Shown: one piece after another, positions 28,074 through 63,959 of the stretch
How the letters are laid out: each line of letters opens with the position of its first letter
How positions within the stretch are numbered: the first letter of the stretch is position 1
Assembly (NCBI GenBank): GCA_030595125.1
Contig: JAUVDV010000022.1
Location: 3,064 to 67,063 of the forward strand
Direction: 5' to 3'
Source of the DNA: Deltaproteobacteria bacterium
GTDB taxonomy: Bacteria > Myxococcota_A > Polyangia > JAAYKL01
Length of the DNA stretch: 64,000 nt
Notes under the pieces: generated by a model
Seen by the model: only the letters and a program-made list of their open reading frames with translations
Database searches by the model: none
What the model was told of the DNA's origin: nothing
Program-made: the position numbers and the translations under genes

Positions 28074-28091
28074 GACAAGGGAGCAATATCG

Positions 28092-34211: not shown

Positions 34212-34220
34212 AATATTGAA

Positions 34221-40251: not shown

Positions 40252-40559
40252 CGTTCCTTCCTGAGATAGTACAATTGTAGTCCCTGAAATTCGGAATTGC
40301 AAGTCCTGTAATGCGGCATTTCAAGCCCTGAAATCATGGAGCGCATGGGCTTTTAGGCTCAGGCAACTGATATGGAACGACCTGTCAATTTGCTTGTTAC
40401 TTGCCCCTTTTATTTTCCTCCTGGTAGTAATCGGCATCGAGATCCCGACACGGTGGACGAGGACGGCTGCTTCGACGACGAATCACTCTGATATTCGTGG
40501 ATTACGTCGGTTACCCAACGCAGAGCGCACATGACTGTTTTCCGTCGGGAGCTGCCGCT

Positions 40560-47729: not shown

Positions 47730-49952
47730 TTAAGAAATAGAGTCCAATGCCGCGTTGAAGGTTGCGCTGGGATGGGTTGCCTTTGCAGCCTTTTCCGGAT
47801 CCGGGAAGTAATAGCCTCCAATATCAACAGGACTTCCCTGGGCCGCAATCATTTCATCGGCAATCTTGGCCTCATTATCTCCAAGCTCTTTGGCCAGCTT
47901 GGAGAAACGCGCCTGAAGCGAGCTATCCTCTGTTTGCTCGGCCAGAGCTTGAGCCCAGTAAAGCGCGAGGTAAAAGTGGCTCCCTCTATTATCCAGCTCA
48001 TTGACCTTTCGGGATGGCGACTTCTTGCTGTCCAGGAACTTGCTATTCGCCTCGCCGAGGGTCTTTGCGAAGATCTTGGCTTTTTCGTTGCCGGTGGTGT
48101 TGCCCAGATGTTCCAGTGATTCCGCAAGGGCCAGGAATTCACCAAGGGAGTCCCACCTCAGATGCCCTTCTTCGACAAACTGCTGGACGTGTTTTGGAGC
48201 CGAACCGCCCGCGCCGGTCTCGAACATCCCGCCGCCGTTCATGAGGGGAACTATGGAGAGCATTTTTGCGCTGGTATTCAATTCAAGAATTGGGAAAAGG
48301 TCCGTATTGTAGTCACGCAACACGTTTCCGGTTACAGAAATAGTGTCTTTGCCCTCTCTCATTCTTTCAAATGAAAATCTGGTTGCTTCCGCCACGGGCA
48401 TGGTATGGATTTCCATGCCGTCCGTGTCGTGATTCGGCAAATATTTTTTTACTTTTTCAATGAGTTGCGCGTCGTGAGGCCTGGCCGGGTCAAGCCAGAA
48501 CACGATGGGCGCCCCGGTAGCTTTGGCCCTGGTGATAGCCAGCTTTACCCAATCCTGTATGGGCGCGTCTTTTGCCTGGCACGCGCGCCAGATGTCGCCC
48601 TCTTCCACTTTGTGTTCGAGAATGGCTTTCCCCGAAGCGTCTACAACGCGAATCGTTCCGTCTCCCGGCGCCTCGAATGTCTTGTCGTGGGACCCGTACT
48701 CCTCCGCCTTTTTCGCCATGAGGCCTACGTTGGGAACAGTCCCCATTTTGGAGGGATCAAGAGCGCCGTGCTTGATGCAATTATTTATGGCCTCCTGGTA
48801 CAGGTCTGCATAACAGTGGTCGGGGATTACCGCCTTTACATCGTGCTGCTTGCCGTCGGGCCCCCACATCTTCCCCGAATCACGAATCATTGCAGGCATG
48901 GACGCGTCGATAATAACATCGCTGGGCACATGCAGGTTTGTGATCCCCTTGTCCGAGTTCACCATGGCGACTTGCGGGCGATTCTTATAGACCTCCTTGA
49001 TATCCGCTTCGATCTCCGCTCTTTTATCTTCCGGCAGGCTTGCGATCTTGTTGTAAAGGTCGCCCAGGCCATTGTTGAAATCAACGCCAAGCTCTTTGAT
49101 AACAGCCGCGTGTTTCTCAATGACGTTTCTGTAGAAAACCTTCACGGCATGACCAAAGATCTTTGGGTCGGAGACCTTCATCATTGTGGCCTTCATGTGC
49201 AAGGAAAACAGCACGCCTTTTTCTTTTGCGTCGTCTATCTGCTCCCCGAGGAATTTTGTCAGGGCCTTTTTGCTCATGAAAGTGGAATCAATGACTTCAC
49301 CGGCCAGAAGCGCCAGGTTGTCCTTCAAGACGGTGACCTTGCCGTCCTGAGAAACAAACTCGATCCTTGCGTTCGTTGCCTGCGCCATCGTGATGGACTT
49401 CTCGTTGGAGAAGAAGTCGCCGCTGCTCATCGTGGAGACATGTGTCTTTGAGTCAGGGCTCCATGCACCCATCTTGTGGGGGTTCTTCATTGCATACTGC
49501 TTGACCGCGACTGCCGCTCTGCGATCAGAGTTTCCTTCTCTCAGAACAGGATTTACGGCGCTTCCCAGCGCCACGGAGAACCTGGTCTTGATCTCCCGCT
49601 CTGCGTCGGTTTTCGGATTCTCGGGAAAGTCCGGAATATCGTAGCCTTTGTCCTGCACTTCTTTGAGTGCGGCCTTCAACTGTGGGATTGATGCGCTGAT
49701 ATTGGGCAGTTTGATGATATTGGCCTCCGGCAACATTGCGAGCTCGCCCAGAGCGGTCAGTTCATCAGGTATTTTTTGACTCTCAGTCAGGTTATCGGGG
49801 AAGTTGGCGATAATTCTTCCGGCAAGAGAGATATCCCTTGGAATAACTTCAAAACCGGACCCCTTTGTAAAAGCCTGGACAATGGGGAGTAACGAGTGAG
49901 TTGCCAGTGCCGGCGCCTCATCGGTTTTTGTCCACATAATTTTTTGAGACAT
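47730..49952 (-). CDS. icd: Monomeric NADP-dependent isocitrate dehydrogenase (about 740 aa type)
   Basis: N-terminus [25 protein letters not shown] and collinear similarity over the full length to Azotobacter-type monomeric IDH (recalled). ATG 49952 with GGAGG RBS. Confidence 0.9.
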
Positions 49953-50005
49953 GGATACCTCCACAGTGTTGATTGTGTGTGCGGGTTTTCAAAGCGCTAT
50001 ATTTT

Positions 50006-51859
50006 CTAGTAATAGAGAATATCATCCATCGGATGACGATACAGCGGCTGTTTGAGGCGTTTCTGGTCGAAAACGTGCCCCATCATCCCGATTGTACGTC
50101 CGAGAATAAACAGGCTGTTCAGCCCCTCGAGATCGAGCACCTGTTGCATCTCCTCGGCGGTGAATTCACCGGATGATCGCATCATGTCTATGAACAAAAT
50201 GCCGATACAACCATCGACGTTCATAATCAGGTTGTTGCGCTTGGAGGTCGTTACCTCCTCTACCTTGAGGGCGTAGTCGAGTACTTCGGTACTGGGGAAG
50301 TTCTTCTTGGCGTACTCTTTCATGAGCGTAACGCGCTGGTCCGGATTCTGGACGCTCTTGACGAGGTGCCCGATGCCGGGGATGTTGATACCGGCTTTTT
50401 TCATGTCGGTAACGAACTGCAAGGGCGTCTTCTTGGCATCCGATGCCTCGGAAAAGTGCTTTGCCGCGCCATGCACGGCGCCGCCGAACCGAGGGCCGAT
50501 GGTCAGCATGCCGCTGACGATGCATGAAATCAGATCCTTGCCCGCGCGGGCCGTGACGATGGCGTTGTGCGCGCCGGACACCGCAGCGCCGTGATCGGCG
50601 GTAATCATCACAGCCATCTCGAGGAATTTGGTAGCCCATGGCGGAAGCAACTTCTTGAACCACAGCAGGCTGATAACGCCACCAATACCAATTTCATTCT
50701 TGAACACATCCGAAATGGTCATGGAGCGTTCGGAATCGTAGGGACCGCCGTAGGCCAGCTCGTCGCCGCTGTCGTCCGAAATTGTGGCGACGAAGTTTCT
50801 CGGCCTGCGAATGACTTTTTCTTTCAATGCCTTGGCGTAGTCCATCGGCATTGCGGGCGCCTCTGTCAGCGGTATCGGCTTGTGTTTTCCGTCAGCCACC
50901 AGCTTGTCGAACGTTTCCTTGATTACCACATCGTAGTTCTCGAACGAGTCGGGAACGATTGCGCCCGCTTCGCGCAGGGCTTCGTTCTTGGCGGTGGCTG
51001 TCTCGGCAGCCTTGTCCGCCCTTGCGCCGGCGTGTCCAAACTGAACTTCCGTCTTGAAGATACCTGCGCAGGTGCCGATGTTCCACATTACGAGCGGCTT
51101 GGTAATTCTTCCTTCCTTGAGAGCTGCGACGATTTTGTACTCGTCCTCGCCGCCAACTTCTCCGAGCGCGACTATCATCTTGATTTCGGGATTCGCCTCG
51201 TAGCGGAACAGATGGTCGGTCAGCGTGCTGAAGGGATAACGGTCGCCACCGATCGCCACTCCTTCGTAGAGTCCGTCCGTGTTGCGGCCGATGATGTTGT
51301 TGGCCTCGTTGGAGAGACCGCCCGACTTGGAGACAAATCCGACCGATCCGCTGCGGTGCAGCTTGGACTCGACGATGTTGTCCAGCATGCCGCCGGTGTT
51401 GCCGATCTTGAAGGCGCCGGCCACAATTCCGCCGACCGTGGCGGGACCGATGAGTATCTTTCCGCCGATCTTTTTCGCCTTGGCGGTGACCTCCTTGGCA
51501 TAGCGCTCCGGCATACCTTCCGCGATGACGGAAATCACGCGAAGCTGATCGTAGTCCAGCGCTTCCATCGTCGTGGGGAAGGCGGAACGGAACGACGCAA
51601 AGTTGACCATGGTCTCTATTGTGCTGTGATTCTTCATCACGTCAGCGATTGTCGGATAGATCGGAATGAGGAGCTCTTTTTCCCCCATGAAGGCCTTGTG
51701 AAGCCCTCCTTTCAGCGCGGTCGGGTTGACGATTGCGGTAACGCTCGGCTTTTCTCTACTGCTGACGTAATCGAAGTCCAGCATTCGCTGAATTGCGTTC
51801 CGCTGATAGCCGTAGATTACAGCTTCGGTATTTCTGTCGAATAGCTTGTAGTCTTTCAT
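50006..51859 (-). CDS. aclA: ATP-citrate lyase alpha subunit (CoA-binding + citrate-synthase-like domains)
   Basis: 617 aa. Succinyl-CoA-synthetase-alpha-like N-terminal half with GHAGA phospho-His loop. C-terminal citryl-CoA-lyase/citrate-synthase-like half. GGAGG RBS. Confidence 0.85.
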   Translation of the reverse strand: MKDYKLFDRNTEAVIYGYQRNAIQRMLDFDYVSSREKPSVTAIVNPTALKGGLHKAFMGEKELLIPIYPTIADVMKNHSTIETMVNFASFRSAFPTTMEALDYDQLRVISVIAEGMPERYAKEVTAKAKKIGGKILIGPATVGGIVAGAFKIGNTGGMLDNIVESKLHRSGSVGFVSKSGGLSNEANNIIGRNTDGLYEGVAIGGDRYPFSTLTDHLFRYEANPEIKMIVALGEVGGEDEYKIVAALKEGRITKPLVMWNIGTCAGIFKTEVQFGHAGARADKAAETATAKNEALREAGAIVPDSFENYDVVIKETFDKLVADGKHKPIPLTEAPAMPMDYAKALKEKVIRRPRNFVATISDDSGDELAYGGPYDSERSMTISDVFKNEIGIGGVISLLWFKKLLPPWATKFLEMAVMITADHGAAVSGAHNAIVTARAGKDLISCIVSGMLTIGPRFGGAVHGAAKHFSEASDAKKTPLQFVTDMKKAGINIPGIGHLVKSVQNPDQRVTLMKEYAKKNFPSTEVLDYALKVEEVTTSKRNNLIMNVDGCIGILFIDMMRSSGEFTAEEMQQVLDLEGLNSLFILGRTIGMMGHVFDQKRLKQPLYRHPMDDILYY

Positions 51860-51868
51860 TTTTACCTC

Positions 51869-53137
51869 CTAATTCTCTTCCAGGCCAAGGCTTACAATTT
51901 TGGTCATATGAGTTTCGGGCCCGTAGACTTCGATCGGCACGCCGAGAGTCTCGCCCAACTCGCGCATCAGCCTCAATCCCTCTTTGTAATTGGGGCCGCC
52001 GCGTCTCACATAGATTTTCACATTGTTTTCCTTCAGCTTGTCTTTGTAGTCGTTCAGGGCCTGAATGATGCCGGTAAAGGTCTTCGCAATGTCGGTGAAA
52101 TTGGCGATGCCGCCACCGATGAGAAGAACCTTTCCTTTTGGGTGCTTTGTCCTGGTCATCAGGTCCAGGAGGGTTTTTGTGTACTCGTAGGTCATCTCCT
52201 TGTTCGGGTCGCCGCTGTATTCGCCATAGTTTGCAATCTCTTCCGCTTTTCCGAGATCGGCGATCGTGTCGGCATAGATGACACTTGCGCCGCCGCCGGC
52301 AACGAGAGTCCAAATTCTACCTTCAGGGTTGATCAGGGTCAGCTTGAGCGAAGCGCCGGTCTTCTCGTCGAGACTCTTGATGTACGCCTCTTCCTTGCTC
52401 ATCACTCGCCCGAAAGGCGGAGGGAAATCCGTCTCGCCCCATTTTTCGACGCATTCGTAGAGCGCTGTATCGTCGAGGCGGGCGACCATGTCGAGCGGGA
52501 AAATATTATCTCCACTCATCGCGAACGGATTGATCTCGAGGTAGGCGAAATGCAGATCTGCATAGTACTTGTAAAGACCCTTGATGTACTTTGACACCAA
52601 CTTCTTCTTCTTGTCGTCCAGCTCCGCCGGGAGCTTAGCGGCCACGTCGATGGTCTCGATATCCGTGCTGGCCGGAACATCTATTTCCGACACGGTATCC
52701 CAGACTGACTCGATATCCATGCCGCCCTTGGTCGAGAAATAAATGGTATCGCCGGTCACATTGGATTTGATGGCAAGATAGTACTCTTCCTCGTGTTTGA
52801 CCAACGGTTCGATAATGAAATGAGTGAGCGAATCGGTGATCTTGCCGACCTTTGTCTCCTTGTTCATCCGCTCACCGATCCACTTGCGCACCTCGTCCAG
52901 GTTCTTGTCGATGAGCAGAAGCCCGTGCTTGCCGCGCTTGCCAAAAAGCTGGTCCGGCTTTGCCACGAGGGGCTTGGTCTTGAGCCAGGGATTTTCTTTT
53001 ACCAGAGTATCCCAGTTGGTCTTTTCGTCCACGAGCGCGATCTCACCCTCGTATCCGAAGCTCCCTCCCAGATATTCTGGCAGATATTTCGCCAGCATCC
53101 GCTTGCCATAGAATTCTCTTATTCCCCGTTGTGCCAT
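51869..53137 (-). CDS. aclB: ATP-citrate lyase beta subunit (ATP-grasp)
   Basis: 422 aa ATP-grasp resembling succinyl-CoA-synthetase-beta. Immediately upstream of aclA (9-nt gap). AAGGAG RBS. Confidence 0.85.
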   Translation of the reverse strand: MAQRGIREFYGKRMLAKYLPEYLGGSFGYEGEIALVDEKTNWDTLVKENPWLKTKPLVAKPDQLFGKRGKHGLLLIDKNLDEVRKWIGERMNKETKVGKITDSLTHFIIEPLVKHEEEYYLAIKSNVTGDTIYFSTKGGMDIESVWDTVSEIDVPASTDIETIDVAAKLPAELDDKKKKLVSKYIKGLYKYYADLHFAYLEINPFAMSGDNIFPLDMVARLDDTALYECVEKWGETDFPPPFGRVMSKEEAYIKSLDEKTGASLKLTLINPEGRIWTLVAGGGASVIYADTIADLGKAEEIANYGEYSGDPNKEMTYEYTKTLLDLMTRTKHPKGKVLLIGGGIANFTDIAKTFTGIIQALNDYKDKLKENNVKIYVRRGGPNYKEGLRLMRELGETLGVPIEVYGPETHMTKIVSLGLEEN

Positions 53138-53207
53138 TTTCGACTCCTTTTTCTATTCTTTCCCTGATTCTTTTCCCTGTTTATTTTGCTCTTGATCGCG
53201 CCGTGTC

Positions 53208-55133
53208 CTAGAGGAAATTCAGCATACCGCCCGCCAGAATGATTTTTTTCTGACGCTCTGAAAGTTTGGCGCTTACCTTGAACGTTGTTCCCTTGGTGAC
53301 GTTCTTCACTACCGCGACACCGTCGCCGGCGATAACGTCGCGAACCTTCTCAATCTCGAGTTTGTCACCCTGGTCGATCGCGTCGAGGTCGTCGGGGTTT
53401 TCGAAATTGAACGGAATGATGCCGAAATTGATGAGGTTGGCTATGTGAATGCGCTCGTACGACTTGGTAATGACCGCCTTCACGCCCATGTACATCGGAC
53501 AGAGCGCCGCGTGCTCACGCGAAGAACCCTGACCGTAGCTCAGGCCGCCTACTATGATGTTGAACTCGCCGTTCTTCTGGATTTTCTTCGCCCGGTTGAA
53601 AAACTCGGGATCGAGGACCTCAAAAAGAAACTCGGAATACTTGGGAACATTGGAACGATATTTCATTTTCGCGCCGGCGGGTATGATGTGATCCGTCGTG
53701 ATCTCATCACCGACCTTTATAGTCACTTCGGCGTTTATCGCTTCGGGCAACGGGTCGTTCTTCGGCGGGTCGCCAATGTTGGGCCCGCGAACGATCTCCA
53801 CCTTGCTCGGATCCTCTGCGGGAGGAACGATCATGGTGTCATCCACCAGGAACTGCTCGGGCATCTCTACTTTTGGATACTCCATGTCGAGGTCGCGCGG
53901 ATCGGTAATCTTTCCGGTGAGCACGGCTGCCGCCGCCGTTTCGCAGCTTACCAGGTAAGCATCTGCGCTCTTGGTGCCCGATCTGTTCAGGAAATTGCGG
54001 TTTGAGGTCCTCAGCGATACCGCATCTGACTTGGGCGACTGACTGTTGCCGATGCAGAAGCCGCAGGCGTTTTCCGCAAGCCGTCCGCCGGCTGAGAGCA
54101 GGTCGAAAAGCGACCCCTCTTTGGTCAGCATCTGGACAACCTGACGCGAACCGGGAGCAATAACGAAGCTCAGATCGGGGGGCGCCGCTCCCTCTTTTAC
54201 AATGCGCGCCGTGGTGGTGAGATCGACATACGAGGAATTGGTGCAGCTTCCCACGCAAACCTGATCGACACTCAGGCCGGCGAGTTCTTTTACTGTCTTG
54301 ATGTTACCCGGGCTGTGAGGCGCTGCCGCCATGGGCACGACTTCGCTCAGGTTCAGCTCCACTACCTTGGAGTATTCGGCGTCATCGTCGGCCTTGAACT
54401 CCGCCCAATCGTTTTCGCGATTTTGCCCTTTCAGGAACTTGCGCGTCTCCTGATCGCTTGGGAAAACAGAGGTCGTAACGCCACACTCGGCGCCCATGTT
54501 GGTGATAGTGGCGCGCTCGGGGACCGAAAGGGTCGCCACTCCGGGGCCACCGTACTCCAGCACAACACCCACATTACCCTTGGTAGTGAACATTTCCAGA
54601 ACCTTGAGTATGACATCCTTTGCCGCAACCCAGGGTTGAAGCTGACCCGTCAGGTTGATTTTGACGACGTCGGGACAAGTGAGATAGAAAGCGCCGCCAC
54701 CCATGGCAACCGCCACGTCCAGGCCTCCGGAGCCCATGGCAATCATTCCGATGCCGCCGCCCGTGGGCGTATGACTGTCGGAACCGAGCAATGTCTTGCC
54801 CGGCTTGCCGAATCGCTCGAGGTGTACCTGATGGCAGATGCCGTTGCCGGAACGGGAAAGATAGATCCCGTACTTCGAGGCCGCCCCTTGCAGGTATTTC
54901 TGATCGTCCGCGTTTTCGTAACCTATTTGAATTGTATTATGATCAACATAACTCACGGCAAGTTCGTTCTTGACACGTTTGATGCCCATCGCCTCGAACT
55001 GCAAGTACGCCATCGTCCCGGTCGCATCCTGCGTCAAAGTCTGATCGATGCGGATGGCGATCTCTTCTCCAGGCTCCCATTTTCCTTCTACGATGTGTTG
55101 CTCAATGATTTTCCGTGCCAGGCTTTTTCCCAT
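53208..55133 (-). CDS. acn: Aconitate hydratase, 641-aa fused-domain aconitase-family enzyme
   Basis: Aconitase-family FeS-ligand regions (GSDSHTPTGGG, VGSCTNSSY, SNRNFLNRSG). GAGAGG RBS. First gene of the acn-aclB-aclA-icd run. Confidence 0.85.
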   Translation of the reverse strand: MGKSLARKIIEQHIVEGKWEPGEEIAIRIDQTLTQDATGTMAYLQFEAMGIKRVKNELAVSYVDHNTIQIGYENADDQKYLQGAASKYGIYLSRSGNGICHQVHLERFGKPGKTLLGSDSHTPTGGGIGMIAMGSGGLDVAVAMGGGAFYLTCPDVVKINLTGQLQPWVAAKDVILKVLEMFTTKGNVGVVLEYGGPGVATLSVPERATITNMGAECGVTTSVFPSDQETRKFLKGQNRENDWAEFKADDDAEYSKVVELNLSEVVPMAAAPHSPGNIKTVKELAGLSVDQVCVGSCTNSSYVDLTTTARIVKEGAAPPDLSFVIAPGSRQVVQMLTKEGSLFDLLSAGGRLAENACGFCIGNSQSPKSDAVSLRTSNRNFLNRSGTKSADAYLVSCETAAAAVLTGKITDPRDLDMEYPKVEMPEQFLVDDTMIVPPAEDPSKVEIVRGPNIGDPPKNDPLPEAINAEVTIKVGDEITTDHIIPAGAKMKYRSNVPKYSEFLFEVLDPEFFNRAKKIQKNGEFNIIVGGLSYGQGSSREHAALCPMYMGVKAVITKSYERIHIANLINFGIIPFNFENPDDLDAIDQGDKLEIEKVRDVIAGDGVAVVKNVTKGTTFKVSAKLSERQKKIILAGGMLNFL

Positions 55134-55495
55134 TGCCGTACCTCTCTTTCTTCACTTCCTTGATTGAAACGGGAAACAAGCACCCTATTCCCGTTTTGCT
55201 TTTTCCTGATTTTGCTTATGATTTATATCATCTTGCACTTTTGCATTGAGGTTTCTCTTGTAGCATTTTCCTACATGCCGCTACTTCTCAGCGGCCCAAG
55301 AATTGCTCATCAATTCCAAACTTTTCCCTAAGATATTCAACTGGCAATGCCATCAATTTTTTCTTTTGGCAATACTGTGCAAATGTTCCTTTAGAACGGG
55401 ACGACAAATGAGATTTGTCACGAAAATGTGGAAATAAACGAAGATCTTATCCAGATCGAAAGCACCTGACTAACGATGGCGATCCAGATCGGATT

Positions 55496-56365
55496 CTATC
55501 CCATCTCACGACGCACGGAATTGGCCAAAATGCCCACTCCTTCGAGATGCACCTCCATTCGGTCGCCGTCTTGCAGGAAGATCGGGGGATCCTGAAACAC
55601 CCCCACCCCGGCCGGGGTTCCGGTGACGATGATATCGCCTGGAAAGAGGGTCATCTGATGCGACACAAAGGCAATGATCTCGGCTGTGGGGACCACCATT
55701 TCGGCAGTGCGCGCCTCCTGGCGAACCTCATCGTTGACGACCATCTTGATGCCCAGATCGTCGGGGTCGCCTATTTCGTCGCTGGACACGACCCATGGAC
55801 CCACCGGCCCGAAGGTGTCGAATCCCTTGCCGCGAAACCAGAGGCGATCACTGAACTGCGCTTCTCGGCCGCTAACATCATTGAAAGCAGTCACTCCTGC
55901 AACATGGGAGAGCGCATCGTCGACCTTGACTGCTTTCGCCGTGCGCCCGATGACCAGCGCCATCTCGGCCTCGAAATCCGGCTTGCTCTCGTGGGCCGGA
56001 ACGATCACCGTCGCTTCATGCCCCACCAGGCAGCTTGGCGCCTTGGCAAAGAGCATCGGCTGTTCCGAGGCCTTCCGGTTCTGCTCCGCCGCGTGTGCGC
56101 CGTAGTTGCGACCGAGCGCCACTACCTTTGAAGTATCCGGCACGGGAGGAGCGAACCGAATCGAAGAGAGCGGCTGGACGTGTTGGCTCTCAAAGCTACC
56201 CGCGTCCACAAGCCGCGCGATCTCCTTGTCAATGCCGGCGGCCAGAAGTTGCCGCCAGCTGCGTGGCCATTGGGGCCACTGGCCGGCGATGTCGAGAACC
56301 TGATCATCGCCTACGAGGACACCGGGGCGTTCCCCTTCCGGGTGGTTGAAGCTCAACCATTTCAT
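55496..56365 (-). CDS. Fumarylacetoacetate-hydrolase (FAH) family protein
   Basis: FAH-fold motifs (ALGRNYGAHAAE, EAEMALVIG, GTPAGVG). GGAAGGAG RBS. Confidence 0.85.
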   Translation of the reverse strand: MKWLSFNHPEGERPGVLVGDDQVLDIAGQWPQWPRSWRQLLAAGIDKEIARLVDAGSFESQHVQPLSSIRFAPPVPDTSKVVALGRNYGAHAAEQNRKASEQPMLFAKAPSCLVGHEATVIVPAHESKPDFEAEMALVIGRTAKAVKVDDALSHVAGVTAFNDVSGREAQFSDRLWFRGKGFDTFGPVGPWVVSSDEIGDPDDLGIKMVVNDEVRQEARTAEMVVPTAEIIAFVSHQMTLFPGDIIVTGTPAGVGVFQDPPIFLQDGDRMEVHLEGVGILANSVRREMG

Positions 56366-56417
56366 TTTACTGCTCCTTCCGAACACTACGCTGACAGGTT
56401 AATTCTGTTCCCGCGTT

Positions 56418-56503: not shown

Positions 56504-57853
56504 ATGGATATTTCGTTCTTTCGCCGAGGTATCAAGCTATCCCGTCGGGCGAGACCTGGAAAGATTGAGCAGATTCCCCCTCCCGGACGGGCAGTGCTGT
56601 CACTTCAGCAGGGAAGCGGTCCTCCTGCCGAACCGTCGATAGAAATTGGAGAGACGGTCATAGTAGGGCAGACGCTCGCCCAGTGCGCTTCTGGAAGCGG
56701 GGCCGACCTCCACGCTTCAATCAGCGGCGAGGTGACGGCGTTCGAGGATCTGCATTTCCCCAACGGGACCACCGTCAAGGCGCTGGTCATCGAAGGCGAC
56801 GGAAAGGACACCTGGGCAGAGCCCGAGCGAGATGACAAACCATTGATTGCGAGCCCCGGCGAGTTGCTCGAACGCATCCGCCGCGGCGGTGTCATCCGGC
56901 AAGGCAGCGAGACCAAGTCTCTGGCCGAAGTCATCGGCGAGGCCATGTCTCCGCGCGGGTATCTCTCTTCCACCGGATCCACGGTCGCCAAACCGGTCAG
57001 GCATATTGCTGTGCGCTTCGCCGACCAGGACCCCCACCTCGACGCGCTCGCGGCCATGACCGAAACAATCGGCGATAAAACTGCGGATCTCGATCTCGGG
57101 GTCAAGGTGCTCGCCTCGATTACCGGCGCCGAGCAAATTCATTTCGTGCTCGACAACAAACAAGAGACGCCCGGCCTCGACAAGCTGGCCGACGATAACG
57201 ACTACGCAGTCTTGCGCCTGGACGCAACCAACTATCCTGACCTCTCCAGCCCAATGGTAGCCCGGGCGGTTTCCGGCAAGGAACCCGACACCGCTTTCAA
57301 GAGAGTGCACGAAAACGGCATCTTGGTTCTGGATGTAGACACTGTGCTGGAAACGGCCCTCGCAGCGCGAGACCGGCGACCGGTTGTCAGCAAACTGATA
57401 TCAGTCAACGGCCCGGAAGGGGCAGGCGTATTCGAAGCACGACTGGGCACACCGCTCGCCGATATCGTCTCGGCCGCAGGCCAAAAAAAGGAAATCGGAA
57501 AGGTGGTGCTCGGCGGCCCGATGAAAGGCATCGCCCACCACACTCTTGAGTTCCCGCTCACCAAGGAGATCTCTGGAATTACGCTGTTTGGTCGAGATCA
57601 AATAGACATGGCAGTCAACGATCCGTGCGTCGGTTGCGGGCTGTGCTCGATGGTATGCCCGATACGCCTCACGCCCGGGATGCTCTCGAGATACTGCGAG
57701 TTCAGCTCGTGGGATCTGGCGCAAGAAGCGCATTTGTTCTCATGCATCGAGTGCGGCTGTTGCGCCTATGTATGCCCGGCCGGCCGCTCGATGGTGCAGT
57801 TCATGGTTCAGGGTAAGAGCGAGTTGCTGTCCACGCGGAGGTCGGAATCATGA
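56504..57853 (+). CDS. rnfC: RnfC-like subunit with two C-terminal 4Fe-4S motifs but degenerate NADH/FMN-binding motif
   Basis: N-terminal RnfC_N-like region (VLSLQQGSGPPAEPSIEIGETVIVGQTLA). Where RnfC/RsxC carries GxxGxGGAGFPT this protein reads GGVIRQGSETKS. C-terminal CVGCGLCSMVCP and CIECGCCAYVCP. Confidence 0.8.
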   Translation: MDISFFRRGIKLSRRARPGKIEQIPPPGRAVLSLQQGSGPPAEPSIEIGETVIVGQTLAQCASGSGADLHASISGEVTAFEDLHFPNGTTVKALVIEGDGKDTWAEPERDDKPLIASPGELLERIRRGGVIRQGSETKSLAEVIGEAMSPRGYLSSTGSTVAKPVRHIAVRFADQDPHLDALAAMTETIGDKTADLDLGVKVLASITGAEQIHFVLDNKQETPGLDKLADDNDYAVLRLDATNYPDLSSPMVARAVSGKEPDTAFKRVHENGILVLDVDTVLETALAARDRRPVVSKLISVNGPEGAGVFEARLGTPLADIVSAAGQKKEIGKVVLGGPMKGIAHHTLEFPLTKEISGITLFGRDQIDMAVNDPCVGCGLCSMVCPIRLTPGMLSRYCEFSSWDLAQEAHLFSCIECGCCAYVCPAGRSMVQFMVQGKSELLSTRRSES

Positions 57854-58830
57854 CAAATCAACGACTTGTCGTTTCAATATCTCCACATATCAAGAACGGA
57901 CGCACCGTGCGGCGCATGATCGTGACCACAATAGCGGCGCTCGCGCCGGCCGCGCTCTGGGGATTCTATCAGTTCGGCCTCGATGCCCTCGCGCTCGTCG
58001 CGGTTGGAATCACCGCCGCTTGCGCCACCGAAGCACTGATCACCCGATTGGCCAAAAAGCGTTCCTCTCTGGGTGACGGCCACGCAGTGCTCACTGGGCT
58101 TGTGCTCGCCTTGCTCGTCCCGGCCGGCGTCCCGTTCTGGCTCGTAATCGTGGGAGCGGTCATGGCCATCCTGGTGGGCAAGATGCCGTTCGGTCCTCTG
58201 GGAGGAGCACCCATTTATCCTGCGCTCGTGGGATTATTGATCGTCGCGACATCCTGGCCCACCGAGATACGTAGCTATGTCCAGCCGACCACCGCCCCGG
58301 TAGAGCTCAAGGTAGAGGGCGCGGCCGACGCTGAAACTCCCCGTGACGCGGTATTCATCGACCCGAGCGACGAGGCCGAATACAAAACTGCAGACCTCTT
58401 CCTGGGTAAACAGGTCGGGCCGATCGGCGCGATTTCCCCGTTGCTTCTGTTGCTCGGGGGGCTGTTCTTGATCCTGCGCCGGGTCGCCCGGTGGCAGGCG
58501 CCACTCGGATTCCTTCTCGGCATGGGCCTTGCCGCCGGGATCGGCCACGCGCTCGACCCGAGCGGTTGTGCTTCTGCGTCTTTTCATCTGTTCACCGGTT
58601 CGGCCATGTTCGGCGCGTTTTTCCTCTGCACCGACTGGTCGTCAACACCCGTGACCCCGTGGGGTATGTTCCTGTTCGGCTTGATCGGCGGCGGATTGGC
58701 GGTTCTTCTCCGAATCGCCGGCCTTCCCTACGGAGCCGTGCCGTGGGCCATCGTGATCATGTCACTGGCCACACCGATCTTCGACCGCATCACCCCCACG
58801 CCTTTTGGAAAGGTGGCGAGCCATGCGTAA
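57850..58830 (+). CDS. rnfD: RnfD/NqrB-family membrane subunit
   Basis: Polytopic membrane protein. Motif FFLCTDWSSTPVTP (FMN-attachment Thr region). Confidence 0.9.
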   Translation: MTNQRLVVSISPHIKNGRTVRRMIVTTIAALAPAALWGFYQFGLDALALVAVGITAACATEALITRLAKKRSSLGDGHAVLTGLVLALLVPAGVPFWLVIVGAVMAILVGKMPFGPLGGAPIYPALVGLLIVATSWPTEIRSYVQPTTAPVELKVEGAADAETPRDAVFIDPSDEAEYKTADLFLGKQVGPIGAISPLLLLLGGLFLILRRVARWQAPLGFLLGMGLAAGIGHALDPSGCASASFHLFTGSAMFGAFFLCTDWSSTPVTPWGMFLFGLIGGGLAVLLRIAGLPYGAVPWAIVIMSLATPIFDRITPTPFGKVASHA

Positions 58831-59428
58831 CAAAATCTGGTTCATGGCGGTCGTGCTCGGTATCGTGGCGTTCCTCGCCGGCCTGGCTCTGGCCGGGGTA
58901 AAAGGAATGACCACCCCGATCATTGAAAAACGCATCCTGGAACAAAAGATCAAACCCAGCCTCGATGAATTTTTCGGGAGTCTCGATCTGGAAAACGATT
59001 GCATTGAGGATCGACAGGTTCTCGATCTCGGCAAGGACGCCCGTGGCCGAAAGCAAGTCACTACTCTGTTCCTGGGCAAAAAGGGCGGCAAGGTCGTCGT
59101 CGCGGCGCTCAAGACCAAGGCCGCGGGTTTCGGCGGCGACATAGAGGTGCTCACTGCTTTCAGCCTCGACGACAAGAAGATCCTCGGCGTCAAGACGCTC
59201 AGCCAATCCGAGACAATGGGTCTTGGAGCACGCGTTTCCAACGATGCCGAGCCGTTTATCCAACAGTTTAGCGGAATGAATTATTCGGATGGGGTCGCAA
59301 TGCGCTCGAACGGCGGGTTGGTTGACGCCATCTCCGGAGCAACGGTTTCGTCGGTGGCATTCACGGCGGCGGTGATCAGGGCGACCGAACTCGTAGAAAC
59401 AAACGTGGGCTCGGCCGCGGCGAATTAG
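58823..59428 (+). CDS. rnfG: RnfG/NqrC-family FMN-binding subunit
   Basis: N-terminal TM. FMN_bind motif ISGATVSSVA. Start overlaps rnfD stop. Confidence 0.85.
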   Translation: MRNKIWFMAVVLGIVAFLAGLALAGVKGMTTPIIEKRILEQKIKPSLDEFFGSLDLENDCIEDRQVLDLGKDARGRKQVTTLFLGKKGGKVVVAALKTKAAGFGGDIEVLTAFSLDDKKILGVKTLSQSETMGLGARVSNDAEPFIQQFSGMNYSDGVAMRSNGGLVDAISGATVSSVAFTAAVIRATELVETNVGSAAAN

Positions 59429-59440
59429 GAAGGCTCGAAT

Positions 59441-60076
59441 ATGAGGACATTAACCCAGGAGTTCACCAAGGGGCTTTGGGAACAGATACCGCCTTTCCGG
59501 CTGGTGCTCGGGCTATGCCCCACCCTGGCGGTTACCAAATCACTCGAGGGCGGATGGGGCATGGGCCTGGCCACTACGTTTGTGCTCGTATGCTCCAATA
59601 TCCTCATCTCGGCCCTGAGGAACGTCATTCCGCCAAAGGTGCGCATCGCCACCTTCATTGTGATCATCGCCACTTTCGTCGTGATCACCGAGCTAGTCAT
59701 GAAGGCCTACACGCCAATGCTCTCGGAAACGCTGGGGGTTTTCATTCCACTCATTGTGGTCAACTGCATCATCCTCGGCAGGGCGGAGGCGTTTGCCTCG
59801 AAAAACGGAATGGGGCGTTCTCTGCTCGACGGCCTGGGCATCGGCCTCGGGTTCACCCTGGCGCTCGCGGTGCTGGGCGGCCTTCGAGAATTGCTTGGCA
59901 CCGGCAAGCTGACCATGTTCGCCCAGGCGAATCTGGACTTGACAATCATCCCGCTGGGAGAGGGCCGTGAGTTTCTGTTCAAATTTATGGTCGACCCGCC
60001 CGGCGCGTTTGTCTGTCTGGGCGCAATGCTCCTGCTGATGAATTTGATAAGCGAACGATCGGCCAAGGCCGCGTGA
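59441..60076 (+). CDS. rnfE: RnfE/NqrD-family membrane subunit
   Basis: 211 aa, 6 TM. Typical RnfE N-terminus (GLWEQIPPFRLVLGLCPTLAVT). Confidence 0.9.
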   Translation: MRTLTQEFTKGLWEQIPPFRLVLGLCPTLAVTKSLEGGWGMGLATTFVLVCSNILISALRNVIPPKVRIATFIVIIATFVVITELVMKAYTPMLSETLGVFIPLIVVNCIILGRAEAFASKNGMGRSLLDGLGIGLGFTLALAVLGGLRELLGTGKLTMFAQANLDLTIIPLGEGREFLFKFMVDPPGAFVCLGAMLLLMNLISERSAKAA

Positions 60077-60086
60077 GGAGAAAACA

Positions 60087-60668
60087 ATGACCGAATATCT
60101 GCTTCTCGTCGTTTACGCCGTCCTGGTCAACAACATCCTTTTGGCCCAGTTCCTGGGCAACTGTCCTTTCCTGGGAACCTCTCAAAAAATGAGCACGGCG
60201 ACCGGGATGGCCATGGCGGTTATTTTTGTTCTGACTTGCGCCGGGGTGATCACCTGGGCGGTCCAATGGTACGTGCTGGTTCCCCTCGAATTGGAATACC
60301 TGCAAACAATAGCGTTCATTTTGGTAATTGCCGCGCTCGTTCAGTTGGTGGAGATCGTGCTGCAAAAGACAGCTCCTGCGCTCTACAGCGCTCTGGGAAT
60401 TTTTCTGCCACTCATCACCACGAACTGCGCCGTGCTCGGTGTTGCGATCATCAATATCAAAGAGGATTACGATTTCATGCACACCGTGGTCTTCTCTTTT
60501 GCCTCGGCGATCGGGTTCGGTCTGGCCCTGGTTCTGTTCGCCGGGCTCAGAGAGCGGTTCGCCCTTTCCCGGATGCCCAAGCCGCTTCAGGGCACCGTGT
60601 CGGGCCTTATCACCGCCGGGCTCATGGCCCTGGCCTTCCAGGGTTTCTTGAAGCTCGGAGAGGGATAG
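60087..60668 (+). CDS. rnfA: RnfA/NqrE-family membrane subunit
   Basis: 193 aa, 6 TM. Typical RnfA N-terminus (LLAQFLGNCPFLGTS). Confidence 0.9.
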   Translation: MTEYLLLVVYAVLVNNILLAQFLGNCPFLGTSQKMSTATGMAMAVIFVLTCAGVITWAVQWYVLVPLELEYLQTIAFILVIAALVQLVEIVLQKTAPALYSALGIFLPLITTNCAVLGVAIINIKEDYDFMHTVVFSFASAIGFGLALVLFAGLRERFALSRMPKPLQGTVSGLITAGLMALAFQGFLKLGEG

Positions 60669-60672
60669 ACAA

Positions 60673-62751
60673 ATGGAAGTACTCGCAGCAGCGCTTGTCA
60701 TCGGCGGAATCGGCACGGTCGCAGCGATCGGTCTGGGCGTGGCCGCCAAGGTTTTCGCCGTGTACATCGACCCCAAGGTGATCGAAGTCGACGAGGCGCT
60801 TCCCGGCGCAAACTGTGGCGGTTGCGGCTTTACGGGCTGCGCGGCGGCGGCGACGGCCGTTGTCAAGGGCAAGGCCCCGGCAAACGTCTGCATCGTGGGT
60901 GGCCAGGAGGTCGCAGAGGCAGTGGCCGGGATCATGGGCATGTCGGTGGAGGAGGGCGAGGTCGGAATCGCCGAGCTGGGATGCAAATACGATGTAAGGA
61001 CTGCCCATCTCCTCTTCGACTACGACGGAGTGGAGGACTGCCGGGCTGCTGCTCTGGTAAACGGCGGCGGCAAGGTGTGTTCCATGGGTTGTCTGGGATT
61101 CGGCACCTGTATAAGCGCCTGTCAGTTCGGCGCTCTTTACAGGGGCGCGGACGGCCTGCCCGCAGTGATCAAGGAAAGGTGCACGGCCTGTGGCGCCTGC
61201 GAGCGGATCTGCCCCAAGGGGATCATCCGAGTACAGACGCCGAGCCGGAAGTTCACGCATATCCAGACCGATGACGATTGCGTGGCTCCTTGCCAGGCTA
61301 CCTGTCCGGCGCAAATCGATATTCCGGCGTACATCGCCGCAATAGGGCAAGGCGATTACGAAAGCGCTGTATGCATCATCAAGGAAAGCAACCCGTTCCC
61401 GCTGGTCTGCGGACGCGTCTGCCCGCATGTCTGCGAGTCGGCCTGCCGACGCAACGATATAGATGAACCTGTAAACATCAATCACCTCAAGAGGTTCGCA
61501 GCTGACTTCGAGATGAATTCAGGCAAGCGATTCTTGCCGCAAGTCCTGCCCCCAAACGGCAAGCGGGTAGCTATAATCGGCGGGGGGCCATCCGGTCTGA
61601 CCTGCGCTTATTACCTGGCCCGCATGGGTTATCAAGTCAAGGTTTTCGAAGCCATGCCCAAGCCCGGCGGGATGCTCCTCTACGGCATTCCCGAGTACCG
61701 CCTGCCAAAGAAAACCCTCGCATGGGAGATAGACGGCATCCTCGAACTGGGAGTGGAGATCGAGTGCAACAAGGCGCTCGGCAAGGACTTCACAATCGAA
61801 GATCTTTACGAGCAGGGTTACGACGCAGTCTATTTGGCGGTCGGAGCCTGGGACTCACGGCGTCTCGGCGTGCCTGGCGAGCAAGACTTCCCACAGGTGG
61901 CGAGCGGCACCGAGTTCCTGATCAAGCGCGGCCTCGGCGAAGAAACGCCGGTCGGACGTGATGTCATCATCGTGGGCGGCGGCAACACGGCAATGGATGC
62001 GGCGCGCACCTCCTGGCGGCTCGGAGCCGAGAACGTTTACCTGCTCTACAGGCGCTCCCGCAAGGAGATGCCAGCAAACGATATCGAGGTGGACGAGGGC
62101 GAGCACGAGGGAATCAAGTACCACTTCCTGGCCGCCCCGACCAAACTGGTCGGCAAGGACGGCAAGCTCGATGCCATGGAGTTCCTCAAGATGGAGCTGG
62201 GCGAGCCAGATGCGTCCGGACGTCGCCGCCCGGTGCCGATAGAAGGTTCGGAAACGGACATCCAGGCGAACAACGTCTTCAGCGCTATCGGTCAATCACC
62301 CGATCTCACGTGCCTGGACGCAGAGGGTGTCGCGAGCGAGTTGAACCGCACCAAATGGAATTCAATCGTTGCCGCCGATGGCACCATGCAGACCGATGTT
62401 TCCAACATCTTCTCTGGTGGTGACGCATGGCGCGGCGCGGCGACCGCAGTAGAGGCAATCAGAGACGGCCGTTTCGCGGCGCGTTCCATCAGCCTGTTCC
62501 TCTCGGGCGAGGAGTTGACCTTGCCCTCCAACTGGTACGCCAAGGCGCCCAAACTCCCCGGCATCGATGAGGGAATCAATCTCGACAAATCCGATCGCGC
62601 AAAGATGATCGAGCTCTCCGTTGATGATCGGCGCATGAACTTCAACGAGGTGGAGCTCGGGATCACCGAAGAGATGGCCAAAAAAGAGAGCGGTCGCTGC
62701 CTGCAGTGCGGCGAGGTCTGTTATCAGGGTTACAGGGAGAAGGCGTCATGA
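60673..62751 (+). CDS. rnfB: RnfB fused in-frame to a GltD-like FAD/NAD(P)H oxidoreductase module
   Basis: aa 1-190: RnfB features (N-terminal TM, CGGCGFTGC cluster, two Fer4 motifs). aa about 200-692: GltD/NfnB-like (two N-terminal Cys clusters CQATCP ... CGRVCPHVCESAC, FAD site IIGGGPSGLTCAYYLA, NAD(P) site VIIVGGGNTAMD). Single continuous ORF. Confidence 0.85.
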   Translation: MEVLAAALVIGGIGTVAAIGLGVAAKVFAVYIDPKVIEVDEALPGANCGGCGFTGCAAAATAVVKGKAPANVCIVGGQEVAEAVAGIMGMSVEEGEVGIAELGCKYDVRTAHLLFDYDGVEDCRAAALVNGGGKVCSMGCLGFGTCISACQFGALYRGADGLPAVIKERCTACGACERICPKGIIRVQTPSRKFTHIQTDDDCVAPCQATCPAQIDIPAYIAAIGQGDYESAVCIIKESNPFPLVCGRVCPHVCESACRRNDIDEPVNINHLKRFAADFEMNSGKRFLPQVLPPNGKRVAIIGGGPSGLTCAYYLARMGYQVKVFEAMPKPGGMLLYGIPEYRLPKKTLAWEIDGILELGVEIECNKALGKDFTIEDLYEQGYDAVYLAVGAWDSRRLGVPGEQDFPQVASGTEFLIKRGLGEETPVGRDVIIVGGGNTAMDAARTSWRLGAENVYLLYRRSRKEMPANDIEVDEGEHEGIKYHFLAAPTKLVGKDGKLDAMEFLKMELGEPDASGRRRPVPIEGSETDIQANNVFSAIGQSPDLTCLDAEGVASELNRTKWNSIVAADGTMQTDVSNIFSGGDAWRGAATAVEAIRDGRFAARSISLFLSGEELTLPSNWYAKAPKLPGIDEGINLDKSDRAKMIELSVDDRRMNFNEVELGITEEMAKKESGRCLQCGEVCYQGYREKAS

Positions 62752-63959
62752 GAAGACCTCTTTTGCTCGGCTGGGCCGTGATTTGCGGCGTGGTGTTTAT
62801 TTGGGGATGCACAGATCAGGAAACCGCGTCCGACGAACCTTCGACTACGGCGCAAGCGCCGTTCGAGAGGATCCCGGGAGGCGACGAAGATCCAGGGGAC
62901 AACGGACCGGACGACTCCACCGAGCTGTCCGCCGTACCCGGCGACATGGGAAAGGTTGCGTTTACGCATTTCACGCACGCCTCGAACTCCAAAAAAGGAT
63001 ACGGCATCCCCTGCCGCACGTGCCATCACACAACACCTCCGGACGAAGACCCCGCCCAGGGTTGCACGGGCGAAGGCTGCCACTACCCGAGCGAAAAGAC
63101 ACCCGACCCGGCCCATGCCGGACCCGACGACAACATGCTGCTCCTTGGCGATGATTCGGCCACGGCCCCGGTAGCGTTCAATCACTTCACGCATGCTTCG
63201 TCTCACGGGTACAAAACCGCGTGCACCCAATGCCACCACACCGGTGATCTCATTGGTTGCTCCGAGTGCCACGAAAAGATTGCGACAAAAGACGACGATG
63301 GCAAGGTTATCCCCAAGACCAAGCGGGCCTTTCACCTGAAGTGCAACGGTTGTCACGAGGCGATCAAAAAAAGCGACCCCGATTCAAAGGCTCCCGTGAA
63401 ATGTGCGGATTGCCACGGTGGCAGTGCGCCGGCTCGCCTGCCCGGCAGTCTGACCCTGGAGCGGGCCTACCACCTGAGCTGTGTAGGATGTCACAATCGG
63501 GCAAAGATGGCCGGGATGGGAACCCCGGCTGTAGATTGCGACGATTGTCACAAAGAGGGCTCGCCCAAGATACCGGGCCTTGAGCCCAAAGAGAAGAAAG
63601 TGGAGGAGGAACCGGCGCCGAAGGAGCAGCCGGCCCCGAGCGCACCGACCGCGCAAGCTGCCGACGCCGGAGCCGCTGAGCCGGCAAAGGACGGGGAACA
63701 AAACAAGGGCCCGGACAAGATCCTCATTGACCACGCCAAAAAGGCCAAATCGGGCACACCGTTTCCACACGCCGCACACCAGGAACTCGGCGAAGAATGC
63801 GCCAAGTGTCATCACAAGGGCCTCGATGATCCGTCCTGTCGCAACTGCCACAGCGAGACAGCTGATGCCAAGAAAATCTATCACGAGATCTGCATTTCCT
63901 GTCACAAGGAAAACGGGATCTCGGCCAGCTGCGCAAGCTGCCATCCCAAGGGCGAGTAG
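62748..63959 (+). CDS. Lipoprotein multiheme cytochrome c (about 12 heme-binding motifs)
   Basis: ATG overlaps the rnfB-gltD stop (ATGA). Lipobox IWGCT. 11 CxxCH plus one Cx4CH. Ala/Pro/Glu-rich linker in the middle. Confidence 0.85.
   Translation: MRRPLLLGWAVICGVVFIWGCTDQETASDEPSTTAQAPFERIPGGDEDPGDNGPDDSTELSAVPGDMGKVAFTHFTHASNSKKGYGIPCRTCHHTTPPDEDPAQGCTGEGCHYPSEKTPDPAHAGPDDNMLLLGDDSATAPVAFNHFTHASSHGYKTACTQCHHTGDLIGCSECHEKIATKDDDGKVIPKTKRAFHLKCNGCHEAIKKSDPDSKAPVKCADCHGGSAPARLPGSLTLERAYHLSCVGCHNRAKMAGMGTPAVDCDDCHKEGSPKIPGLEPKEKKVEEEPAPKEQPAPSAPTAQAADAGAAEPAKDGEQNKGPDKILIDHAKKAKSGTPFPHAAHQELGEECAKCHHKGLDDPSCRNCHSETADAKKIYHEICISCHKENGISASCASCHPKGE

Follow-up and report, generated by a model that had tools for sequence, protein, structure and literature searches.

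The 64,000-nt window analyzed here (contig JAUVDV010000022.1; all coordinates below are window positions) encodes an Rnf complex, the six genes of which lie together on the + strand at positions 56504–62751. The operon belongs to the Rnf2 class, already published and typified by Desulfobacula toluolica Tol2, and its architecture is known; the locus itself is a new and somewhat divergent member from a different, uncultured lineage. The pyridine-nucleotide site of this complex has apparently been relocated from RnfC onto RnfB: RnfC lacks both loops of the flavin mononucleotide (FMN)/NADH site, and RnfB is fused to an NfnB/GltD-type flavoprotein module. The present analysis adds a remodeling of the RnfD pocket, a near-constant linkage to a cytochrome gene, and a lineage labeled Myxococcota/Eisenbacteria/Deltaproteobacteria, in which the operon stands beside ATP-citrate-lyase and tricarboxylic acid (TCA) cycle genes. 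We propose that the encoded complex acts as an NADPH:cytochrome c oxidoreductase with ion coupling, for which ferredoxin may serve as a further donor, and we give this proposal about an even chance of being correct.

A first-pass annotation of this stretch had read the genes in the canonical rnfCDGEAB order, and the family assignments bore this out, with all six products matching their respective Rnf families in Pfam and NCBIfam. The genes are tightly packed: rnfC (56504–57853; 449 aa; degenerate type), rnfD (57850–58830; 326 aa; Pfam NQR2_RnfD_RnfE, 4.8e-77), rnfG for the periplasmic FMN subunit (58805–59428), rnfE (59441–60076), rnfA (60087–60668), and the rnfB fusion (60673–62751; 692 aa). 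The stop codon of rnfC and the start codon of rnfD overlap as ATGA, and rnfA and rnfB are spaced by 4 bases; for rnfG, a gene caller chose an alternative start in another assembly, equivalent to position 58823. All six Rnf subunits are therefore encoded together, the exception in scoring being RnfC, which reached 215 with the NCBIfam model TIGR01945 (cut-off, 246). As in the canonical Rnf complexes of A. woodii, C. tetanomorphum, and A. vinelandii (PDB IDs: 9ERI, 7ZC6, and 8AHX), six homologous subunits are encoded in one operon, and the RnfA/RnfE Cys pairs, the RnfG flavinylation motif, the N-terminal Fe-S domains of RnfB, and the RnfC fold with its two clusters are retained. Unlike these complexes, the window operon has an RnfC without FMN/NADH loops, an RnfD with a predicted remodeled pocket, an NADP(H)/flavin adenine dinucleotide (FAD) module on RnfB, and an attached cytochrome.

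The Pfam domain order of RnfB is FeS (PF04060), Fer4, Fer4_20, and Pyr_redox_2. Residues 1–199 (60673–61269; Pfam and NCBIfam) constitute the RnfB part, comprising a membrane helix, the PF04060 cluster motif CGGCGFTGC, and a 2x[4Fe-4S] ferredoxin domain, and solved RnfB chains aligned with the window protein over residues 4–195. The NfnB/GltD-type module, assigned by Pfam, NCBIfam, and PDB homologues, spans residues 200–692 (61270–62751) and contains the FAD loop GGGPSG (61579–61596), the NADP(H) loop GGGNTAMD (61975–61998), and the segment YRRSRKEMPAN (62047–62079), which holds Y459-R460-R461. The ligands of its two [4Fe-4S] clusters are C203, C207, C211, C250, C254, C258, K273, C676, C679, and C683, with K273 being the counterpart of Lys170, a ligand of cluster A7 in Csac NfnA (9BOV). 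When conservation was counted over 53 homologous fused RnfBs, the GxGxxG loop for FAD, the GGGNTAxD loop, Y459-R460-R461, and all cluster ligands, including K273 and the C-terminal CxxCxxxC, were invariant. The domains and these invariant motifs agree with the earlier description of the 692-aa RnfB as carrying a complete GltD/NfnB-type module with FAD, NAD(P)H, and two [4Fe-4S] clusters, and the Fer4_20 ligands, the GxGxxG and GGGNTAxD loops, and the Y-R-R motif are all present.

The fusion was judged not to stem from a frameshift or from misassembly where rnfB meets the gltD-like part. An error joining rnfB to a gltD-like neighbor, together with a pseudogenized rnfC, found nothing in its favor and is effectively refuted as an explanation: an identical 692-aa protein is encoded in an independent Logan assembly (SRR18920792), the same junction is common to more than 120 clusters and 30 loci, and Rnf2 subunits have been seen as proteins in cultured sulfate reducers. 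Decay of RnfC is likewise contradicted by its confidently folded structural model and by many conserved RnfC positions. In the database survey of fused RnfB, the best 120 clusters were 680–730 aa in length with full coverage, save one truncated entry, and included Desulfarculus baarsii DSM 2075 and Dethiosulfatarculus sandiegensis. The full-length fusion was found at 30 loci when genomes representing species were scanned, and wherever the flanking sequence sufficed it lay within an rnf cluster, except at L039 and L064. At these two loci (PHBH01000049 and JAGYOX010000047, respectively), a full-length fused RnfB is encoded with no other rnf genes within ~4–8 kb on each side, which may represent orphan or split Rnf2 arrangements.

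The identity of the window RnfB was 93% to proteins of two genomes labeled Deltaproteobacteria, 66–79% to those of genomes labeled Myxococcales, Myxococcota, Polyangia, or Candidatus Eisenbacteria, 56–63% to Desulfarculus-like sequences, and 49–52% to Desulfobacterales/Desulfobacteraceae sequences, with 58% over the full length to the fused RnfB of Desulfarculus baarsii. Judged from these sequences, the clade of the window is distinct and appears to lie outside Desulfobacteraceae. The first-pass annotation treated the architecture as undescribed; this did not hold, since Rnf2 was published in 2016 (PMC5109826) and 2025 (PMC11887813), and the more than 120 clusters and 30 loci make it a published family with many database examples. 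According to Doerries et al. 2016 (PMC5109826), the Rnf type of D. toluolica Tol2 was first reported by Woehlbrand et al. 2016 (Proteomics 16:973); its RnfB is ~700 aa in length with NAD-binding sites, and in D. multivorans five of the six Rnf2 subunits were detectable under every growth condition tested (PMC5109826). The name Rnf2 comes from a 2025 Science Advances paper, which placed the complex in the core genome of Desulfobacteraceae, found it abundant and constitutive in six strains, and named Desulfarculus baarsii among its carriers (PMC11887813). The accompanying supplement lists these RnfB and RnfC differences as well as a cluster-encoded cytochrome c3 (PMC11887813). No term searched in connection with the Rnf2 variant occurs in the 2025 RNF/NQR review (PMC12174285).

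The window operon shares the features that define this class, namely an RnfB of ~700 aa in which a pyridine-nucleotide oxidoreductase domain (Pyr_redox module) follows the Fe-S domains, an RnfC devoid of the NADH-ubiquinone oxidoreductase (FMN-binding; Complex1_51K) and SLBB signatures despite retention of the fold, and a cytochrome c gene in the rnf cluster. The full-length fused RnfB is 49–58% identical to its Desulfobacterales and Desulfarculus members. The operon differs in gene order, which is rnfCDGEAB-cyt in the window and cyt-rnfCDGEA(B) or rnfB-cyt-rnfCDGEA in Desulfobacterales, and in the cytochrome, a 12-heme lipoprotein-like protein of ~403 aa as opposed to the small published cytochrome c3 of ~130 aa with 4–5 hemes. 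It also differs in the RnfC glycine loop, which is followed by an insertion of ~13 residues in the window, whereas Desulfobacterales RnfCs have a deletion there, and in its relatives, which are labeled Deltaproteobacteria, Myxococcales, Myxococcota, Polyangia, and Candidatus Eisenbacteria rather than Desulfobacteraceae. Rnf2 is reported to be a constitutively abundant core redox complex of Desulfobacteraceae, the dominant carbon oxidizers of marine sediments (PMC11887813).

Comparison of the module with proteins of solved structure yielded E-values of 1e-136 to 1e-99. The closest was Caldicellulosiruptor NfnA (9BOV; 8e-136), and the further best matches were Thermococcus NfnA (9N5U), Sporomusa StnC (8OH5), and NfnB of Pyrococcus and Thermotoga; a Foldseek search with the AlphaFold2 (AF2) model of fused RnfB (predicted local distance difference test score, pLDDT, 82; predicted template modeling score, pTM, 0.79) returned the same relatives. 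The NfnB-like domain of the Bfu-type NfnABC/StnABC complexes (9BOV, 9N5U, and 8OH5) resembles the module in its 38–45% identity over ~480 residues, in the 3Cys+Lys ligands, and in the position of the NfnB N-terminal segment (helix and CxxC) at the C-terminal end. It differs in its setting, being fused to a formate-dehydrogenase-like domain in a soluble bifurcating complex, whereas the module of the window is fused to a membrane-anchored RnfB. The last 50 residues of RnfB aligned with the N-terminus of classical NfnB, and the tail at residues 641–683 (62593–62721) aligned with residues 7–46 of PfNfnI-B, including its first CxxC ligands; the module is thus circularly permuted relative to NfnB, as in 9BOV and 8OH5.

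These solved homologues are all NADPH-dependent, and the NADP(H) loop and Y-R-R motif of the module match those of the NADPH-dependent NfnB, NfnA, and GltD; a preference of the fused RnfB for NADPH is, on grounds of homology, likely. The homology of the module to NfnB, the bifurcating subunit of NfnSL-type enzymes, also raises the idea of flavin-based bifurcation or confurcation at its FAD, with one branch running to the RnfB chain and another to RnfC or a different partner, for which the cytoplasmic face shared by RnfB and RnfC would leave room. In 9BOV, however, the FAD of the NfnB-like domain is the end of the chain and NADPH electrons pass into cluster A7, an arrangement stated to be incompatible with bifurcation, and the NfnB-like domains of Bfu-type NfnA/StnC are terminal, non-bifurcating NADPH sites (PMC11829005). 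Arg333 of NfnB, for which a supporting role in bifurcation has been proposed, corresponds to Asn in 51 of the 53 fused RnfBs (Asn469 in the window). The stretch from rnfC to the cytochrome gene holds no nfnA-like partner gene, the long N-terminus of the NfnAB (NfnSL) bifurcating transhydrogenases is missing along with the nfnA neighbor and Arg333, and a single Fe-S wire leads from the FAD in the sequence. Bifurcation at the module FAD is accordingly graded as unlikely, and we regard the two-branched scheme as highly improbable. The first-pass annotation had combined relocation of the nucleotide site to the ferredoxin-facing subunit with NADPH specificity or bifurcation-like chemistry; the relocation gained support from the RnfC comparison below and the NADPH specificity is plausible, whereas the bifurcation was not borne out.

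In RnfC, an RnfC_N barrel is followed by a middle domain of NuoF-like type and, at the C-terminus, by a ferredoxin domain with 2x[4Fe-4S]. Profile searches matched RnfC_N and two Fer4 motifs in this protein, as they matched Fer4 and Pyr_redox_2 in RnfB; Complex1_51K was not detected by Pfam in the window RnfC, and SLBB reached 16 bits, under the threshold. At the glycine loop (residues 128–139; 56885–56920), the window RnfC reads GGVIRQGSETKS where the three solved RnfC chains read GIVGMGGATFPT and the canonical consensus is G(I/L)VGMGGAxFPT. Alignment with reference RnfCs thus revealed no intact NADH/FMN motif, in agreement with the earlier statement that the nucleotide-binding loop is replaced. 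The second NuoF-type motif, unmentioned in that annotation, is degenerate too, because RFADQDPHLD (residues 171–180; 57014–57043) stands opposite NAAECEPYLT of the solved chains (canonical pattern, NxxECEPYLT). Neither the GxGGAxFP loop nor the ECEPYLT loop of a NuoF-type FMN/NADH site is therefore present. The two [4Fe-4S] motifs, CVGCGLCSMVCP and CIECGCCAYVCP (57626–57778), are intact in the alignments, and all eight cluster cysteines were invariant in both RnfC alignments.

Structural prediction of RnfC by AF2 from 67 homologues gave a pLDDT of 84.9 and a pTM of 0.82, with the NuoF-like middle domain confidently modeled as well. In Foldseek searches, solved RnfCs were the best matches (template modeling score, TM, 0.73–0.76), followed by NqrA (TM 0.54–0.57). 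Together with the loop alignments, these results indicated that the RnfC fold is retained and its ferredoxin domain is present, while the flavin and nucleotide loops are gone. We then compared 27 RnfC sequences. Both FMN/NADH loops were missing in all 25 RnfCs from fused-type loci and were present in C. tetanomorphum, in the solved RnfCs, and in the control of L059, which neighbors a short RnfB. Both motifs were also missing in 119 of the 120 closest database homologues of RnfC, at least 22 of which lie on contigs equal in length to those of fused-RnfB matches, circumstantial evidence that the two genes share a contig. A precomputed PF01512 listing was discarded as a marker of functional RnfC, as many listed homologues were without both motifs in their sequences.

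Next, we focused on RnfD, in which C. tetanomorphum binds FMN at Thr153 with Arg130 and Glu185 flanking the ring; Asn90 and Glu185 are the proposed Na+ site, and Asp248 lies near riboflavin (PMC9588780). Using C. tetanomorphum numbering, we compared 26 fused-type RnfDs (from the window and from loci among L001–L026, L046, and L062) with three canonical RnfDs. Position 90, canonically Asn or Ser, was hydrophobic in 24 of the 26 and Thr in the remaining two; position 130, canonically Arg, was Leu, Val, Ile, Met, or Trp in every case; and position 185, canonically Glu, was always Ala, Ser, Thr, Gly, Val, or Cys. The canonical Thr at position 153 was replaced by Tyr, Phe, His, Ala, or Leu in 24 of the 26, Thr being found only in the window and L004, and position 248, canonically Asp, was Asp or Glu. 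The window RnfD itself carries N90L, N124Y, R130L, and E185A and retains D248. In its loop AADAETPRD (58321–58347), which occupies the place of the canonical (S/T)xATPL with the FMN-bearing Thr, the Thr is preceded by Glu instead of Ala (AETPR). The two closest relatives, L001 and L003, with RnfB 93% identical, have Phe at the Thr position, and L002 has His and L062 Ala. Neither (S/T)xA(S/T)P nor (S/T)GA(S/T) was found in the RnfD loop of any of the 26 fused-type RnfDs.

The canonical combination of an (S/T)xATPL Thr with Arg130 and Glu185 is thus lacking in the window RnfD, at least as read from its sequence, and the RnfD of every fused-type operon examined is predicted to possess a remodeled FMN pocket and has in most cases lost the Thr to which FMN would be attached. 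The supplement of PMC11887813 calls the remaining Rnf2 subunits "very similar", and the RnfD change may for that reason be previously unnoted; we found no mention of it in the Rnf2 literature searched.

The state of RnfC and RnfD bears on a further possibility, in which the two substrate sites have been swapped, with the exposed [4Fe-4S] domain of RnfC, devoid of FMN, as the docking site of ferredoxin and with RnfB as the place of NADP+ reduction. Such a ferredoxin:NADP+ oxidoreductase would account for the invariance of the RnfC cluster cysteines despite loss of the flavin site, and the complete NADP(H) module on RnfB would serve as its exit. The required flow from RnfC through RnfD, RnfG, and RnfA/E to RnfB, however, opposes the ion-exporting canonical direction (path from PMC9588780), and would thus tie an exergonic reaction to an influx of ions. 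This route must pass through the RnfD FMN pocket, which is remodeled in all 26 sequences, and the conserved cytochrome gene is left unexplained. We consider the swapped arrangement unlikely.

The components of the transmembrane and periplasmic route are preserved. The window RnfG has an intact S-G-A-T flavinylation motif (DAISGATVSS; 59333–59344), S-G-A-(T/S) occurs in 24 of 27 fused-type RnfGs, the window included, and Cys pairs are present in RnfE (C26/C109) and RnfA (C26/C114). Directly downstream, a gene for a class III cytochrome c of ~403 aa (62748–63959, + strand; Pfam/NCBIfam and motif count) begins with an ATG that overlaps the rnfB stop codon (ATGA). The product contains 12 heme motifs (11 CxxCH and one CxxxxCH), and its signal peptide ends in the lipobox-like FIWGC, from which it may be a lipoprotein. 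At 23 of ~25 loci with sufficient flank, a gene for a multiheme cytochrome stands next to the rnf genes. In the clade of the window the cytochrome has 11–12 hemes and is encoded downstream of rnfB, whereas that of Desulfobacterales is small, has 4–5 hemes, and is encoded upstream of rnfC.

What the sequences show are the domains and motifs, their joint occurrence across the loci, and the linkage of the genes; from these we infer which cofactors are bound, which way electrons flow, that ion movement is coupled, and that electrons leave an NADPH:cytochrome c oxidoreductase through the cytochrome, as follows. NADPH would bind to the NfnB/GltD-like module on RnfB, where FAD would split the hydride into single electrons, which the module's pair of [4Fe-4S] clusters would pass to the clusters of RnfB itself. 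From there, electrons would reach the RnfA/RnfE Fe-S centre, traverse the membrane to the covalent FMN of periplasmic RnfG, and leave through the co-translated 12-heme cytochrome c, a putative lipoprotein, toward periplasmic or quinone-linked partners. The RnfD-RnfC half would deliver no electrons to NAD+, since RnfC has no FMN/NADH site and RnfD no canonical FMN pocket; it could act as a scaffold, an ion path, or a side branch to some cytoplasmic partner. Reverse flow, in which periplasmic electrons reduce NADP+ to NADPH, would also be possible.

Several points weigh against this mechanism. Strict conservation of the eight cluster cysteines argues for continued electron transfer on the RnfC side, a point for which the model has no account. 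The window RnfD has Thr at the aligned site, with one HMMER alignment setting the loop differently, and the retention of Asp248 as Asp or Glu makes a non-covalent flavin route through RnfD possible. The potential of NADPH (approximately -320 to -370 mV) leaves little driving force for ion pumping when electrons pass to low-potential c3-type hemes. No multiheme cytochrome open reading frame (ORF) was found in the fetched loci L004 (from a Desulfaculaceae genome) and L005, both of which are rnfCDGEAB. Finally, the mode of action of Rnf2 "awaits experimental verification" (PMC5109826).

The principal competing account is that of the Rabus group, in which reduced ferredoxin is the main donor at RnfB and NAD(H)/NADP(H) an extra substrate there, with a Na+ gradient being formed and cytochrome c3 passing electrons through Qrc and menaquinone to sulfate reduction. 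The supplement of PMC11887813 proposes that oxidation of ferredoxin, and perhaps of NADH, would also reduce the cytochrome toward Qrc. That residues 1–199, which hold one ferredoxin-like 2x[4Fe-4S] domain, align with canonical RnfB fits this account, as do the ability of NfnB-type proteins themselves to bind ferredoxin (PMC12221290) and a Qrc/ACIII-like gene set in the window. The match to C. tetanomorphum RnfB, however, stops at residue 195 of 274, and the NfnB module replaces the distal ferredoxin-like domain of longer canonical RnfBs, which puts the ferredoxin docking site in doubt. The invariance of the NADP(H) site in 53 sequences suggests that the nucleotide is a principal rather than an additional substrate, and the window gives no sign of sulfate reduction by the host, with no dsr, apr, or sat genes seen among the window proteins scanned. 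We regard the ferredoxin-driven account as possible but rather doubtful for this operon.

The NADPH-to-cytochrome mechanism has analogues in the Rnf-MmcA system of Methanosarcina acetivorans, in two-subunit Nqr/Rnf-like complexes, and in the origin proposed for Nqr. The M. acetivorans Rnf makes no use of NAD(P), with RnfG being the proposed donor to cytochrome c (PMC4023990). It is like the window complex in having no NAD(P) use at RnfC and a co-transcribed multiheme cytochrome c; it is unlike it in being archaeal and in its short RnfB, with ferredoxin as sole donor and no NAD(P)H module. NCBIfam Methanosarcina models matched the window Rnf proteins partly, with scores under the cut-offs. The two-subunit complexes are without the RnfD/NqrB threonine and have been proposed to supply acceptors outside the cytosol with electrons drawn from NAD(P)H. 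Nqr itself is proposed to have arisen when RnfB function was lost, RnfC decayed to NqrA, and an NADH dehydrogenase module was recruited (PMC4014512).

The window complex resembles Na+-NQR (NqrABCDEF) in having a flavin-containing NAD(P)H module at the RnfB position (NqrF) and an RnfC homologue that, like NqrA, is without nucleotide and flavin sites. The two differ in the input module, which is of NfnB/GltD type in the window and FNR-like with 2Fe-2S in NqrF, and in the clusters, which are retained in RnfC and lacking in NqrA. Covalent FMN persists in NqrB but apparently not in the window RnfD, and a quinone site is not evident in the window complex. No NqrF-type gene is present in the operon and NCBIfam Nqr models scored far under their cut-offs, setting it apart from a true Na+-NQR. 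These comparisons lead to a broader idea, which we advance tentatively and rate well short of an even chance: Rnf2-type complexes, instead of being ferredoxin:NAD+ oxidoreductases, may represent a second path, evolved independently, by which an Nqr-like NAD(P)H dehydrogenase pump arose from Rnf. NADPH would enter at the RnfB module and electrons would leave via RnfG to the cytochrome, with the RnfD-RnfC half electronically disconnected for want of covalent FMN in RnfD. In the lineage of the window, where genes for ATP-citrate lyase, aconitase, and isocitrate dehydrogenase adjoin the operon, the complex could run in reverse and draw on periplasmic electrons and the ion gradient to supply NADPH for a reductive TCA cycle. 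The apparent occurrence of the type beyond sulfate reducers, the invariant NADP(H) site, and the apparently remodeled RnfD pocket sharpen the hypothesis of an NADPH-to-cytochrome, Nqr-analogous pump over that of a ferredoxin:NAD+ pump.

The genomic context of the operon includes an FAA-hydrolase/TCA gene block that lies directly upstream and runs divergently from rnfC on the - strand (47730–56386). It encodes a monomeric isocitrate dehydrogenase (47730–49964), the ATP-citrate lyase subunits (50006–51859 and 51869–53137), aconitase (53208–55133), and an FAA-hydrolase-family protein (55496–56386). The presence of ATP-citrate lyase suggests a TCA cycle, either reductive or oxidative as in Desulfobacter, that handles NADPH and ferredoxin. 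A Qrc/ACIII-like gene set (33612–38363, + strand) is located ~20 kb upstream of the rnf operon and consists of a 5-heme cytochrome ORF (33612–34208), a molybdopterin-oxidoreductase-like subunit with weak domain matches (34221–36386), a 4Fe-4S subunit (36341–37150), and an NrfD membrane subunit (37131–38363). This set and a separate 6-heme ORF (28074–28559, + strand) are possible partners for the Rnf-linked cytochrome. The neighbors fit a metabolism of NADPH, ferredoxin, and periplasmic cytochromes, and are no proof regarding the Rnf complex.

Additional features were observed elsewhere in the window, over which an Rfam scan returned no matches. Encoded between the 6-heme ORF and the Qrc-like cluster (28603–32149, + strand) are a sensor kinase (HAMP/HisKA) and a response regulator dependent on sigma-54, a pair that may control the cytochrome genes. 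An AAA_14/DUF4143 ATPase gene (39079–40302) and, beside it, an IS110-family transposase gene (40695–41807) occupy the - strand in the interval that separates the Qrc-like cluster from the TCA block. A 1016-aa ORF (42397–45447, + strand) combines acetyl-CoA hydrolase/transferase N- and C-terminal domains with GNAT and histone-deacetylase-family domains and is an unusual fusion of acetyl-handling domains.

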